Of a stretch of 11,855 bases of DNA, positions 1 through 11,855 are shown one piece after another (the first letter of the stretch is position 1; each line of letters starts with the position of its first letter). Where the stretch lies: assembly GCA_038127595.1 (NCBI GenBank), contig JAYPIC010000025.1:12630-24484 (forward strand), in the 5' to 3' direction. The DNA is from a bacterium (lineage in GTDB: Bacteria > Fidelibacterota > Marinisomatia > Marinisomatales > UBA1611). Position numbers: made by a program.

Positions 1-3000
1 ACTTATAAGAGTAAACACAAGTATGATTTAAAAAAATTTGGACTGTCAGAGAAAAAAATTAAAAAAGATTGTCTTGCAATTTATGAGACCTTTTTGACAT
101 AATGAGCGTACATAGAGCAAAGTTTTTTATAATAATATTTTTTTTATCAAACTTCATTATTTGTCAGAATGAACTAGTTATGAGTAATTATGAAAATCTT
201 AATGAATGGGAAACAATTCAAGAAACAGATGTTAATTTAAAATGGACTAACCAAAACGGTTTCCCCATTGTAAAAGCTACAGCACAGATGCCATTTCCTA
301 TAGATTCAATTTCTAAAATAATTGAGGATGTTAAAAACTACCCTAATGTGTTTAGAAGAGTTCATGAAATTCAAATTCTTGATAAAAACATCATCCATGT
401 AATGCTTGATATGCCATTTTTACTTTCTGATCGCGATTATGTAATTCAATATTCTAAAAATAAATCAAAAACCACATGGAAATTCTCATTCAATGCTATA
501 GATCATGAAAGTGCTCCTGCCACAGAAGAATATGTTAGATTAATAAATGCATTTGGTAAGTGGGAATTAAGTCCAACAAATGAAAATGAAACATTGCTAG
601 TTTATACATGGAATGGAGAACTTTTAGGAGATTTTCCAGAATTCGCTTTGAGAAGAGCATGGAAAACACAAGGAAATGAAATAATACACTGGATTAAAGA
701 TGCGCTTAAATAAAATAATAATATTAATCCTTTTATCAAGCATAGCACTTAGTCAATCTAAAAATGCATTTAATGGTTTTTTAGATTTTAATTATATATC
801 ACGAATCTCAGATGGATCAATAATTAATCTACCTTATAGATTGTTTAGTTTAAAGATTGACCATGAAAATGAAGATATTTTGATAAAATCAAACTTGGCA
901 ATTGAGCATAAAATAAGAGATGAAACCCATTTTTTATCTAATGAATCTCCATCAGATTTTAATCTTGATTTAAGAGAACTTTATTTGCAATTATTTACTT
1001 CATGGGGAGAATTGAAAATTGGAAAAATCATTCATACCTGGGGTAATGTTGATGAAAATAGTCCTATTGATATTGTTAGTCCATATGACTACTATTTTAC
1101 TTTTGATTCAGGCACTGATAAAAAAATGGGAATTTTCTCATCTGCTGTAGATATTTATGCAAATAATTATAAGATTGGGTTTACTTTTTCTCCAATTCAC
1201 AATACTCATAGGACCCCTCTAGAAAAAGATGATTTTCCAATAAAACTGCCAACATATCCTTATGAAAATGAGTTTATGAAAATTAGTGGTACCCCTATAG
1301 AATATGGATTCTATGGCTCGAAGACACTGAGCAAAGGAGACATCTCTGTGCATTATTTTAATGGATATGATCGACTGTTTAATCTTTCAGGTGTGAATGT
1401 ATATGCAAATGGCCCTGATAAAAGTTTTTCAATCATAGATATAATATATAGCTACAGAAAAACAAAAATACTTGGCGTAGGCACTAATCTTTTTATCGGA
1501 GATGCAACATTTAGAGGAGATGCCGCATTTTTTAACACATCAGACGTGAATGATGAAGATAAATTTCTTGAAAGAAAAAGCTCTTATCGTCCAACGATAT
1601 ATGACTCATTACATTATTCTTACCCTTTAAAAGAGGAAATAAATTATTTTCAAACAACATTACAGTTTGAAATCGAATTACCCTTTGATATTCAATTTAC
1701 AGGTCAATTTTTTACTTACGATACTTTAGATTATAAATCTGATAGCCTACCCCTTGATGAGGATATATCAATTCCAAATCTAGAAATCACAGTTGATGAA
1801 TTGAACCCATAAAATATTTTTACACCAGGATATGGGTCCTCGATCGGAATTTTAACAAAAAAAGCAGCAGTTATATCACTCCAAAAAAGCATTTTAGATG
1901 ATCAACTGACTTTTAAATTATCATCGCTCTTGGATATCGATAATAATAGCCATGACAATTCTATACCAGGAATAATACTATCCCTAGAAACATCATACAG
2001 ATTAAATAACAACCTTATTATTGACATTGGATATACAAAGATAACAGGAGATAGTAATCATCCTCTGGGCGAGGATTATCGATTAAATATTATGGAGGAT
2101 TTTTCACATTTCCGTACAAATTTAAAATATAACTTTTAATGGATATTATGAAATGAGTATCCAAATAACAGGATCTGGATTTTATTTACCTCCATACATT
2201 GAAAACTCAAAAACTACGGCTCAAATCATTCGTAAAAATGAAAATTGGATTATTTCAAAAACTGGAGTAAAAGAAAGAAGAATTTCAAAAATCGACGTTG
2301 ATAAGATGGGGGCAATCGCTGCCGAAAAAGCTTTAGATGGAAATGGCGCTCCTGATTTAATTATCAATGCATCGGGAGTACCAAAGCAAACAATACCTGA
2401 TACATCCGTTTTTTTTCAAAAAGAGCTTGGTTTAAAATCTATCCCCTGTTTCAGTATTCATGGTACATGTTTATCATTTCTAATAGCATTAAACAATGCA
2501 AGATCGCTAATTAACACAAACGTATATGAAAGAATTTTGATTATCTCATCGGATCGAGGAAGCTTAGGTAGAAACCCCAAAGAACCTGAAAGTGCTGCAC
2601 TCTTAGGAGATGCTGCAGCAGCAATACTTGTTGAAAAAGAAAAATCAGATTCAAATAATTTTCATTATTGGAAAATGAATACGTGGTCTAATGATGCCGA
2701 ATTGACTGAAGTAAGAGGCGGCGGTACATTCAAGCATCCACTCGACCCGAACACAAGAATTGAAGATAATTTGTTTACAATGGATGGACCAGCAGTATAT
2801 AAATCCGCGAGAAAAAAAGCCTATAGAATGGTTTTAGAAACATTTAAGAATACCAAATTCAATAAAGAAGATATCGATTGGCTAATTCCACATCAAGCTT
2901 CCATTAAAGCAATAAATGCATATAGTGAATATGGAAGTTTTGATATGAATAAAATTATAAATATAGTACCAAAAACTGGAAATTGCGTAGCCGCCTCAAT

Positions 3001-9000: not shown

Positions 9001-11855
9001 ACTAGTTTATCATTTGAACTTTTCATTTATTTATATAAAAATTTTGGTTTAAATAAGCTAACAAGAGCTGGCAGAATGGCCATTCCACCAATCAAACAGA
9101 ACCCAATTGATGCCATAATTAATATACTGAACTCTTTTAAAGGCATGAAAACAGAAAACATTAAAACTGAAAAGCCAACGATTACTGAAATGCCATTAAA
9201 TAATATTCCTTTCCCTGATACTTTCATTGTATTAGAAATTGCATCATCCAAATTGTCCCCTTCCCTTAGATGCTCTCGGAGATGCCAAAGAAAATGTACA
9301 GAATAGTCTATACCAACACCAACTAAAATGCATGTTAGCAGAGATGTAGTCATATTAAGTGGAATACTAAAATTACCCAACAAGCCAAAAATAAGTATTA
9401 CAGCCAGCAGCATTGGAAGGCTTGCTAGTACCCCACCAATTAATGATCTAAATACTAACGCCATAATACTAAATAAAATTATTGAGGCTATTCCTAAACT
9501 AATGATTTGACCTCTTATTACAGAGTGACTTACTGCACCCAATAAAGCTGCCGGACCCGATAGCATTGGATTAATAGGCTGGCCGTCATAATAGTTTGAA
9601 TTTATATAATCCTCAGTATCGTCTACCAGGGCCATTAGATCTACGGTACTAACTTTTTTTATTCGTACGAATCCCTGAGTATAATTTGGATCATCAGTAT
9701 CATTTAATATTAGATCAAAATCATTATCCTCTCCCGCAATAGAATATAAAAACATATATTGTTCAATAAGCTCTCGGCTTGAAGGTATCTTTAAGGAATC
9801 AGGATTACCATTATGAAAGGAATAATGCATTTTTTTTACAACATCTGCAATAGAATATGTCGAGCTAACGATGCTATTTTTTTCTTTTATATGAGACATC
9901 AATTTGTCGATATGCCTTAATGATAGGGGATCATAAATATCACCCTCAATTAATATATTAAGCTGAGTTGATCCTCCGAAAACTTCACTAATTACAGCAC
10001 TTGATCTTCTAATTTTTGAATCTTTGGGAAAGTAGTTGTCTGGAACAGTATCAATTGTTATATCTCTTATGCCAAAAGAAAAAATAAACATTATCGAAAA
10101 TAAAACAGCTAAAAAAGGTATCCTATTCTTAACAAAAAACTTCCCCCAATTGACTAAAAAATTATTTACTGTCTCTAAGCTTTTTTCTTTTCCTAGGTAT
10201 GTTGGCCTTGGAACTAATATAAGAATCGCAGGTATCAGAAGAAGACTCAAGAAGAACGAAACCGCAATACCGAAGGATACTAATAAACCAATTTCTCTAA
10301 CCTTAGAAAGCTCATGAGTAACTAAACTCAGAAAACTAATTACCGTAGTAAACCCAGCGAGGAAAATAGGCATTCCCAACCTCTTCATAGTTCTCTTTAA
10401 AATTTCGATTCTATCTAAGTTTAAATCTAATTTGGTAAACTCATAATAATGAGATATGATGTGAATACCATAATTATTTGCAATTGCAATAAGCATAATT
10501 GGAATTAAGCCACCTATAATTGGAACAGATATGTCCAACCAAGCCATTAACCCGAACGTCCATAAAATGGAAAAACCAACTACAAACAAAGGTAAAAAAG
10601 TTCCCGTCCAACTTCTAAAGCTTAAAATTAATAGAAGTATCATTAAACCTAATGCTATAGGTGTAAATGTTCTCATATCTCTTTTTACACTATCAATAGA
10701 CTCCGCAGCAGAAATAATTGAGCTAGCGATATAGATATCTTCAATTCCTTTAAAGCCGTCAATGATTTTAAATAAGTTTTCTCTAAATGCTATTTCATCA
10801 AAATCAGTAGGTGCGGTAATTTGTGCAATGAAACACATAATATTTAGTTCTGCGGATATAAGACTACCGATAATTTCACTAGCCTGAATTTTTTCAATAA
10901 AAGCAGATACCTCCAATGAATCTTCAGGTATTTTGTTAAGTATTTTTTGTATTTCAAAGCCACCATCATCTGGAACAATATATTTTTGACTATAAATAGA
11001 AGCGACCCTGCTTACAGAAGGAATGTTTACTAAAGAATCATGTAAAGATGAATATTTACTCAAGATTTGCTCTGAAATTAAATTTTCAGATTCTACTGCA
11101 ATTACCACAATCTCATTGCTACTAAAAAGATCTTCAGCAAGCTCCATATTCTTTACAATTTTATGGTCTTTAGGTACCAAAGACCTCAGACCTGGATCGA
11201 TTTTCAACTCATTTATCTTCCACATAAAAAAAATGGTTAATAGCAATGTAAATGATATTATCGAACGCGGATAATGAGCATCTAATAAAAATAATCGTTT
11301 TATTATATTCTTAAGATTCATAATGTTTTAAAGGTGTGGAATTTACATAGTAATATTTTTATATGTTAGGAACTACAATATCTAAATTTTTTATTAGTAA
11401 TATCTCAAATGATTGACTTGAAAAATCCAACAATAGTGCTTGCAAATGGAGAATTCCCCAAACATCAATCGGCTTTAGATTTTCTAAACTTTGATTATAA
11501 TATCATATGCACAGATGGTTCAGCTGATAAATTAGAGGAGCACGGGATACCTCCAAAAATAATAATCGGTGATTTTGATTCTGCTAAAATTGTACATAAA
11601 AAAAACGAAGCATTATGGATAGAGAGGCCGGACCAAAATAAAACTGATTTAGAAAAAACATTTGAATGGTGCTTATCAAAAAATATCAAGAAAATTATTC
11701 TACTTGGTGCAGGAGGTTTAAGAGAGGATCATACGCTTGGTAATTTATTTGTAGTTTCGAAGTTTTCTGAGCTTTTTGAAATTGAAGTAGTAACAAATTA
11801 TTCTACAATTTTTTGTATTAAAGGTTCAAAAACAATAGAAACAAAAATAGGACAG

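Follow-up and report, generated by a model that had tools for sequence, protein, structure and literature searches.

The natural donors and acceptors of exported arylsulfate sulfotransferases (ASSTs) are described as largely unknown in the accessible portions of two 2026 papers (PMC13426309; bioRxiv 2026.10.08.757629). Such enzymes would have no PAPS at their disposal outside the cytoplasm, and a gene cluster of Marinimicrobia in which a PAPS-dependent sulfotransferase lies together with two putatively exported ASSTs raises the question of how they might be supplied. The cluster names a candidate donor pathway. Most of it is contained in the window analysed here, a stretch of 11,855 nucleotides (positions 12,630 to 24,484 of contig JAYPIC010000025.1), to which coordinates refer unless a contig position is given. 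We favour, at even chances, a caprazamycin-like relay across the envelope, in which a sulfated carrier of the alkyl-pyrone type would feed ASSTs at the cell surface.

Organisation of the cluster

The cluster comprised 13 genes, and every gene of a preliminary description, including the ATP sulfurylase/APS kinase within the locus, was confirmed in its place. Neighbours on the same strand were separated by -20 to +13 bases, while 135 bases lay between the divergent ASST1 and sulfotransferase genes; a promoter scan of this divergent region returned three sites for 4.1 expected. Neither Pfam nor NCBIfam gave a match for the START protein, the beta-barrel or a 106-aa membrane protein (8706..9026, minus strand), which was encoded between MMPL2 and LolA2 and found in 10 of 48 relatives' loci. 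Contigs from RNA libraries covered 29-30 of 30 bins, a pattern from which transcription is not demonstrable.

Conservation and distribution

The gene set had been described as a conserved cluster, and its conservation indeed exceeded chance by a wide margin. All of 48 loci from relatives contained START; the barrel and ASST1 were present in 47 each, ASST2 and the LRR protein in 44 each, KS III in 31, MMPL in 28, LolA-like genes in 25, FadB in 11, PAPS synthase in 10 and CysQ in eight. START was the immediate next gene after the sulfotransferase in all 48, and ASST1 was divergent from and adjoining the sulfotransferase in 45.

Among 401 genomes of the phylum, 101 carried a sulfotransferase orthologue, 107 a T9SS-tailed ASST2 and 99 both, counts that overstate co-inheritance because kin are not independent, for which reason Fisher p-values were given no weight. 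The 101 orthologues were those kept from 139 matches at a cut of E 1e-50; distant sulfotransferases (23-31 % identity; families f3, f27 and f30) were excluded, the module being absent from 10/10 of their loci, as were weak ASST2 matches in seven genomes (E above 1e-40). Genomes with one of the two genes but not both were 69-92 % complete. Presence was split inside genera, in the same way for both genes (g8, 1/2; g9, 2/3; g26, 2/6; g29, 2/3). ASST1 was encountered in 40/40 module genomes versus 4/40 controls, and a KS orthologue in 63 of 100 carriers versus one of 52 genomes with neither marker gene. Correlations of pairwise identities (0.38-0.51) were uninformative. Overall, about a quarter of the sampled Marinimicrobia genomes displayed the module.

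These data bear on whether the cluster is only a conserved neighbourhood of unrelated envelope genes. MMPL/LolA-like genes, PAPS synthase and FadB vary in presence from locus to locus, and 57 T9SS-tailed genes were counted in this genome, as such a reading would allow. However, six core genes stay grouped through rearrangements and fusions in eight families, the tested marker genes were lost together, and parts regroup in other lineages. The co-loss pattern largely refuted this reading for the core, and we regard it as highly improbable.

Regrouping was observed among 27 loci outside the Marinimicrobia type. The same KS clade lay directly upstream of the sulfotransferase in eight of the 20 with upstream sequence, ASSTs were nearby in five of 18 scanned, and one locus (L298) united six ASST genes (five T9SS-tailed) with KS, sulfotransferase and APS kinase. 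The grouping of KS, sulfotransferase and ASST thus recurs outside Marinimicrobia, which is new here. In cluster look-ups, the sole named non-Marinimicrobia sulfotransferase was from Spirochaetales. A START-pattern scan of GTDB yielded six of 80 loci in high-GC genomes without the module. Locus L164 was labelled as a flavobacterium and displayed the gene order of family f13; it is probably mis-binned. No description of the cluster was found in the literature on Marinimicrobia sulfotransferases or on arylsulfotransferases with type IX secretion, in which subscription papers were thinly covered.

Sulfotransferase and PAPS supply

The Stf1/Stf9-like PAPS-dependent sulfotransferase (PF13469) starts at contig position 11692 on the plus strand and spans a 10-N scaffold gap just upstream of the window, which holds its last 33 codons (1..102, plus strand). 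It displayed the motifs GNPRSGTT and VRDP. The structure model of a relative's sulfotransferase with 93 % identity matched 2ZQ5 (TM 0.71) and 2Z6V (TM 0.62); a PDB search with the single sequence gave no match, while a profile search did. One orthologue bears the JGI name omega-hydroxy-beta-dihydromenaquinone-9 sulfotransferase. In the family of that name, the product is an end lipid.

This name suits a rather unlikely alternative: the sulfated lipid or signal produced by KS and sulfotransferase would be the end product, and START and barrel would export it. The ASSTs would then only modify it, remove its sulfate or draw on other donors. Pyrones are signals in Photorhabdus, according to the accessible part of PMC4578411, and the export genes would suit any lipid; left unexplained are two ASST families almost never found without the sulfotransferase, the expansion of ASSTs up to five copies and the fusion of ASST2 to a binding LRR.

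PAPS would be supplied by a fused ATP sulfurylase/APS kinase (Sat/CysC, PAPS synthase; 6267..7940, minus strand; NF004040 867.7 bits, cut-off 669). The preliminary description held that PAPS has no assimilatory outlet. For the present genome (95.8 % complete) this stood, as searches for PAPS reductase/CysD and for sulfite reductase found neither, yet the point was weaker than stated: a second PAPS-using sulfotransferase occurs here within a polysaccharide locus, and at least eight module-bearing relatives carry a CysH-type reductase, in most of them in a sulfite reductase-cysH-cysG operon. APS kinase was not co-inherited with the module (63/101 carriers versus 163/300 others). Of 40 carriers, mostly at least 90 % complete and 12 of them chosen for lacking APS kinase, 11 showed no Sat and no APS kinase; G018, G091 and G338 displayed sulfite reductase-cysH-cysG, and ATP sulfurylase was not found in them. 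PAPS synthase often lies in polysaccharide islands and the G217 copy is cut by a contig end, so its apparent absence may be due to assembly loss. Some families have PAPS synthase and CysQ within the cluster.

START protein, barrel and MMPL/LolA-like transport

The START protein (102..713, plus strand) was assigned through ESM Atlas START clusters with a near-maximal score. A hydrophobic N-terminus in the START of 48 orthologues, here read as a signal peptide, suggests a periplasmic lipid-binding protein. The DUF1302-like outer-membrane beta-barrel (700..2139, plus strand; ESM Atlas DUF1302 clusters) gave an all-beta model with AlgE as best Foldseek match. Its gene contains an in-frame TAA (1810-1812) that is a sense codon in all four public runs and absent from four relatives; the stop is thus peculiar to the present assembly. 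A complex prediction for START and barrel returned the lowest possible score and gave no answer for or against pairing.

MMPL2, an MMPL/HAE3-type RND transporter (9027..11321, minus strand; PF03176, E 2e-44), scored 265.3 bits against TIGR00921, under the cut-off of 351.9. LolA-like protein 2, predicted to be periplasmic, is encoded at 7940..8719 (minus strand; PF17131, E 1e-46). A second pair lies upstream, outside the window, on the minus strand of contig C25 (locus L001): LolA-like 1 (7020-7769) and MMPL1 (7766-10063). These transporters had been counted as part of the module. LolA-like genes were, however, detected in 37 of 40 module-free genomes across the phylum, which points to a general transporter rather than a defining part, and MMPL was absent from 20 of the 48 relatives' loci. 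In f5 loci the MMPL gene is preceded by a gene that we take, from its motif, to be TetR-like.

The same parts could also work inwards. Exported ASSTs would then take sulfate off esters in the environment and transfer it to a carrier, or release the carbon skeleton; uptake would run through barrel, START and MMPL, and the sulfotransferase would run backwards to give PAPS without ATP, or trap imported lipids. The carriers in which neither Sat nor APS kinase, or no ATP sulfurylase, was found would fit, as would FadB in the relatives' loci and the need of P. putida for DUF1302/DUF1329 genes during growth on fatty esters, reported in the accessible part of bioRxiv 2020.07.04.188060. Against this stand the possible assembly loss of PAPS synthase and the presence in the cluster of a KS for biosynthesis, of PAPS synthase and of CysQ. 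CysQ breaks down the PAP that a reversed reaction would require, and sulfate is abundant in seawater. We hold an inward route to be distinctly unlikely.

Ketosynthase

The KS III (2153..3115, plus strand) was assigned by phmmer and profile scores to the branch of MxnB and CorB, which produce alpha-pyrones according to the parts consulted of PMC5724707 and PMC5506619. Scores were 178.9 and 174.3 bits to 4V2P and 4YUC versus 139.8 to the best FabH with phmmer, and 253/250 to MxnB/CorB versus 207 to FabH with profiles. By sequence, the closest solved relatives are thus the pyrone synthases, ahead of FabH, an assignment that is new here. The enzyme displayed a C106-H247-N277 triad, and I81 and T307 fit the MxnB channel pattern (V94, T322), where FabH entries have F and other residues. 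It remained below family cut-offs (TIGR00747, 198 versus 292; NF005541 (PRK07204), 262.5 versus 402), and a separate FabH-type gene is present on contig C5 of this genome. Modular PKS genes were not found among recurrent neighbours of the loci.

No KS was detected in 37 of the 100 carriers, including most of f5 (present in 2/12), f13 (1/10), f11 and f16, some of them well assembled; type III PKS (PF02797) as a replacement was found in none of 42 relatives. This patchiness would agree with a relay in which phenols, from the environment or from the cell itself, receive sulfate from the sulfotransferase and, once exported as conjugates, serve ASSTs as donors for neutralising further phenolics at the surface, KS being accessory. 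The preference of ASSTs for phenols (PMC11576661, as far as accessible) and the TetR-like gene of f5 loci point the same way. In contrast, distant lineages also have KS directly next to the sulfotransferase, and KS conservation is high (mean column identity 71 %); such detoxification appears unlikely.

Exported arylsulfotransferases and the LRR protein

ASST1 (PF05935), with a dockerin-like tail, is encoded upstream of the window (contig C25 10060-11556, minus strand, locus L001). ASST2 (4187..6286, minus strand; PF05935, PF14269, PF18962) combines Ig-like domains with a T9SS tail. Catalytic residues of E. coli AssT are His356, Asn358, Arg374 and His436 according to the accessible text of PMC13426309. 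ASST2 aligned with all four (H314/N316/R332/H372, invariant in 42/42), and ASST1 H234/N236/R252 aligned to the E. coli enzyme, its QH307 being placed by motif and kept in 54/55. An HHD motif, assigned to AssT His252 by motif only, was invariant in both. Both exported ASSTs are therefore predicted to keep intact catalytic residues.

ASST1 had been called periplasmic, which is at most a putative location: its C-terminal tail gave dockerin matches, and one family has a T9SS tail in its stead. The Cys-capped LRR protein with a T9SS tail (3118..4185, minus strand; PF13855, PF18962) contained invariant cysteines and was fused to ASST2 in two families (L049 of f13; L056/58/59/62/65/66 of f17). NCBIfam matches of the LRR protein to effector families were far under cut-off, reflecting the repeat only, and were rejected. 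For LRR and ASST2, TIGR04183 (T9SS type A sorting domain) was over cut-off and N-termini were hydrophobic, as judged without a dedicated signal-peptide predictor. SprA, PorV and PorU were over cut-off in this genome; GldM was not found in a search without positive control.

A proposed sulfate relay

In the relay that we favour, carrier, direction and targets are inferred. Sat/CysC, assigned by sequence family, would produce PAPS. The MxnB/CorB-like KS would condense two acyl or 3-oxoacyl thioesters head to head, giving a small lipophilic enol that, judging by the closest structures, is most likely an alkyl 4-hydroxy-2-pyrone. The membrane-associated Stf1-like enzyme would sulfate this enol from PAPS, with CysQ clearing the by-product PAP, and the MMPL/LolA-like transporter, START and the DUF1302-like barrel would move the carrier sulfate outward. 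ASST1, ASST2 and dispersed paralogues would accept the sulfo group on a histidine and hand it over to acceptors on the cell surface or farther out, LRR probably being the partner through which ASST2 binds its acceptors. Candidate acceptors are proteins or glycans of the cell's own surface and phenols from the environment. A different carrier would be needed in lineages lacking KS.

The outline of a shuttle in the preliminary description stood in part: co-inheritance of ASST2 and sulfotransferase, a KS nearest to MxnB/CorB and recurrence of the grouping elsewhere argue for it, while three supports proved weaker than stated. If true, the relay would show how activated sulfate gets out of a Gram-negative cell, provide the exported ASST class with the natural donor that has long been missing, give the MxnB/CorB branch a housekeeping-like role and point to a sulfated metabolite not recognised before in a marine phylum that is abundant and uncultured. 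More tentatively, with the balance somewhat against it, a sulfated dialkyl pyrone made by the MxnB-like synthase might act as a sulfate currency exported across both membranes; LRR-aimed, T9SS-anchored ASSTs would act outside the cell, adding sulfate to proteins, to glycans or to metabolites of neighbours, in Marinimicrobia and in other T9SS-bearing and high-GC lineages. By analogy, such a system might function like Golgi sulfation without PAPS transport.

Comparison with known systems

MxnB (4V2P) and CorB (4YUC), the best PDB matches to KS, have in common with it the C-H-N triad, the GNC and GTGxG motifs, Thr at MxnB T322 and an aliphatic residue at V94. They act on PKS-bound chains, whereas neither trans-AT PKS nor carrier proteins occur in the cluster loci. 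The mycobacterial Stf1, Stf9 and Stf3 share fold and PAPS-binding motifs with the cluster sulfotransferase at only 16-17 % identity, so that their substrate is not transferable.

Periplasmic ASSTs (E. coli AssT; Streptomyces 9KF4/9KF6) have the His/Asn/Arg set in common with the cluster enzymes, for which ping-pong chemistry is expected. The latter differ in their surface-sorting tails and in having no DsbL/DsbI among the cluster genes. They are also linked to a candidate donor supply, unlike most ASSTs, whose natural donors are given as unknown in the portions consulted of the two 2026 papers.

The HAE3/DUF1302/DUF1329 system AmeABCD exports lipophiles according to the accessible part of PMC6394551. 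An HAE3-like RND, a LolA-like/DUF1329 protein and a DUF1302-like barrel also occur in the cluster, which in contrast has no BNR/YCF48 gene, an RND under the TIGR00921 cut-off and a barrel without Pfam match that is tied to START and sulfotransferase, not to the RND.

The closest parallel to the proposed relay is the two-step sulfation of caprazamycin/liposidomycin by Cpz6, Cpz8 and Cpz4 (Tang et al. 2013, as summarised in accessible parts of PMC6731281, PMC5916927 and PMC6560455), in which pyrones are the carriers (PMC6731281, PMC5916927). A condensing enzyme, a PAPS-dependent sulfotransferase and an ASST lie together in both. Nucleoside antibiotic or liponucleoside acceptor genes were not found among recurrent neighbours of the cluster, and Cpz6 is a type III PKS whereas the cluster has a KS III of the MxnB/CorB branch. 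Unlike the caprazamycin system as described in these sources, the cluster has START, barrel and MMPL/LolA-like transport genes, and its ASSTs bear predicted signal peptides with T9SS or dockerin-like tails.

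Gene content and distribution within the phylum

The cluster comprised 13 genes on contig C25 (JAYPIC010000025.1), ten of them inside the window, in a genome of 2.0 Mb that is 95.8 % complete; close homologues carry the name Candidatus Marinimicrobia. Matches to Pfam- and NCBIfam-type families bore out the gene assignments of the preliminary description. The sulfotransferase gene spans a scaffold gap and ends (3') at window position 102. A thiamine pyrophosphokinase gene (11409-11855), which borders the cluster in many loci of families f1 and f5, is probably a bystander.

The best reading of this module, to which we give about an even chance, is an outward relay. 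PAPS would serve as the sulfo source, the KS III-type ketosynthase (KS, 2153-3115) would produce an enol carrier to be sulfated in the cytoplasm, the START protein (g965, 102-713) and barrel (g966, 700-2139) would export it, and exported arylsulfate sulfotransferases (ASSTs) would transfer the sulfo group to putative acceptors, with a presumed role for the LRR-T9SS protein (LRR, 3118-4185, minus strand). The part established here comprises the protein families with their catalytic residues, the export signals, the co-inheritance and the gene fusions.

Orthologues were called at E < 1e-50 for the sulfotransferase and E < 1e-40 for the T9SS-tailed ASST2 (4187-6286, minus strand); among 401 phylum genomes, 101 displayed the former, 107 the latter, 99 both and 292 neither. 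The module occurred in five families of the order, as already described, and in eight families in all. All 40 carriers examined had ASST1, which is encoded upstream of the window, as against 4 of 40 controls. The core order in 48 loci was ASST1 divergent from sulfotransferase-START-barrel, together with ASST2 and LRR. Since 77 of 80 genomes had LolA-like genes, 37 of the 40 controls among them, and MMPL was absent from 20 of the 48 loci, the MMPL/LolA-like transporter was at most recruited to the module. At C20:12047-15230 of this genome (locus L086), a third MMPL gene is followed by a gene whose product, judging from its motif, presumably resembles a tocopherol-cyclase family member.

Loci in other lineages

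A metagenome scan with distant sulfotransferases as queries gathered 80 loci, 27 of them of other than Marinimicrobia type (GC 35-75 %, 47-56 % identity). A KS of the module clade lay immediately upstream of the sulfotransferase in eight of the 20 such loci having upstream sequence, and a Pfam scan placed ASSTs close by in five of 18. Loci L225 and L281 displayed a START-superfamily (AHSA1) gene, then the sulfotransferase, then an ASST; L291 held in addition LolA-like and DUF1302 genes and a different KS III gene. Six ASST genes, a KS, a sulfotransferase and an APS kinase stood together in L298, whose KS shared 84 % identity with proteins bearing the names Ignavibacteriae and Bacteroidetes and had relatives in KSB1 and Chitinispirillaceae. 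This regrouping is the best evidence for a functional link independent of kinship; that the genes are neighbours by chance is highly improbable.

Sulfotransferase, START protein and barrel

The sulfotransferase displayed both PAPS-binding motifs and a Stf1/Stf9 fold. A hydrophobic segment at about residue 25 suggests membrane association, and the catalytic domain would be cytoplasmic. Its product might be an end-product sulfolipid rather than a carrier, which we consider rather unlikely.

g965 was recognized with very high confidence as a START-domain protein (ESM Atlas), with a signal-peptide-like N-terminus in 48 orthologues, and g966 as a DUF1302-like barrel (ESM Atlas). The predicted model of a close relative's barrel was all-beta (pLDDT 85) with AlgE as top match. 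Such a barrel might also belong to an inward route, a quite unlikely alternative to the outward direction presumed for the relay. The in-frame TAA in the barrel gene (1810-1812) is an assembly error or a private mutation, as four of four public runs showed a sense codon and the frame is open in four relatives. In several loci, a shorter g966 paralogue comes after an MMPL-LolA pair. Genome G263 has two module copies (L084, L083), one with barrel and KS in a single 810-aa frame, either fusion or sequence error in a locus rich in N.

Ketosynthase and putative carrier

The top PDB matches of the KS were 4V2P (179 bits) and 4YUC (174 bits), against 140 bits for the best FabH; its family profile scored 253 and 250 bits versus 207. 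According to excerpts of PMC5724707 and PMC5506619, these structures are MxnB and CorB, which join two beta-keto chains into an alpha-pyrone. Conserved residues included the catalytic triad as well as I81 and T307, the MxnB-like positions. In a tree of 24 rows, built without MxnB and CorB, the 19 enzymes belonging to the module, whether from Marinimicrobia or from elsewhere, formed one supported clade (97/99) separate from FabH paralogues. By sequence, the KS may thus form a pyrone. This matters because pyrones carry sulfate in the sole known relay, that of caprazamycin (excerpts of PMC6731281, PMC5916927 and PMC6560455).

The KS was found in 63 of 100 carriers, versus one of 52 genomes without either marker gene, and not in the other 37, which speaks against the relay reading; a substitute type III PKS was seen in 0 of 42. 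A relay running on scavenged phenols would be an unlikely variant.

Exported ASSTs and surface sorting

ASST1 and ASST2 both kept the catalytic set of E. coli AssT (by alignment and motif, residues after the excerpted PMC13426309). ASST1 ends in a dockerin-like domain. Among the 48 loci, dockerin-like versus T9SS tails numbered 46 versus 3 on ASST1, 6 versus 36 on ASST2 and 10 versus 30 on LRR. The two kinds of tail replace one another on these proteins, so that ASST1, correctly described earlier as an ASST, need not be periplasmic as then proposed. ASST2 and LRR were fused in two families. Many genomes had extra, dispersed ASST2 copies, and no common neighbourhood appeared among the neighbours listed for 16 such loci, except close-kin synteny.

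ASST1 was duplicated or triplicated in tandem in L047, L053 and L071 (families f11 and f17). A third ASST of this genome (C17:29225-30310, L085), its 5' end in a scaffold gap, is an ASST1 paralogue with a dockerin-like tail and comes after genes for a T9SS-tailed protein and a PorV-family member. Many secreted Marinimicrobia proteins, including ASSTs and LRR, displayed a dockerin-like C-terminus instead of a T9SS tail, mostly in family f17 (48 module loci and L107-L122); this domain may serve as another signal for surface sorting or anchoring. The genome encoded 57 T9SS-tailed proteins and, above cut-off, SprA, PorU and five PorV-family members. No match to GldM appeared in the whole genome, in a search that had no positive control; the phylum may have a divergent T9SS motor.

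PAPS supply

Against the relay reading, APS kinase was not co-inherited with the module (63 of 101 carriers versus 163 of 300 others). In 11 of 40 mostly near-complete carriers there was no sign of Sat or of APS kinase (12 of the 40 had been selected as lacking it). Assembly loss is a plausible but unproven cause, since PAPS synthase often lies within polysaccharide islands and is truncated by a contig end in genome G217. Three of the eleven (G018, G091, G338) have sulfite reductase-cysH-cysG; in their operons (L103, L104, L105) a conserved, unnamed gene of 170-190 aa lies between sulfite reductase and cysH.

The earlier view that PAPS has no assimilatory outlet holds only in a narrow sense: no CysH or sulfite reductase was found in the genome, but a second PAPS sulfotransferase was (C31:2533-3489). 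Its neighbours, which we take from their motifs to be flippase-like and methyltransferase-like genes, accompany it in what is probably a locus for a sulfated surface polysaccharide. The streamlined genomes (0.7-1.1 Mb) of genus g17 (L073-L078) retained a distant Stf-like sulfotransferase in 29 of 37, with APS kinase found in just three of 37 and LolA-like genes in none of three.

Comparison with known systems

In the literature searched, no description of the cluster was found, and a 2026 ASST preprint mentions neither Marinimicrobia nor secretion nor dockerin. The cluster is real, and the relay reading is directly testable. The proposed mode of working is that of the caprazamycin relay; in contrast to the latter, the Marinimicrobia cluster has neither a type III PKS nor a nucleoside acceptor and its ASSTs are exported, so that it is not a member of that system.
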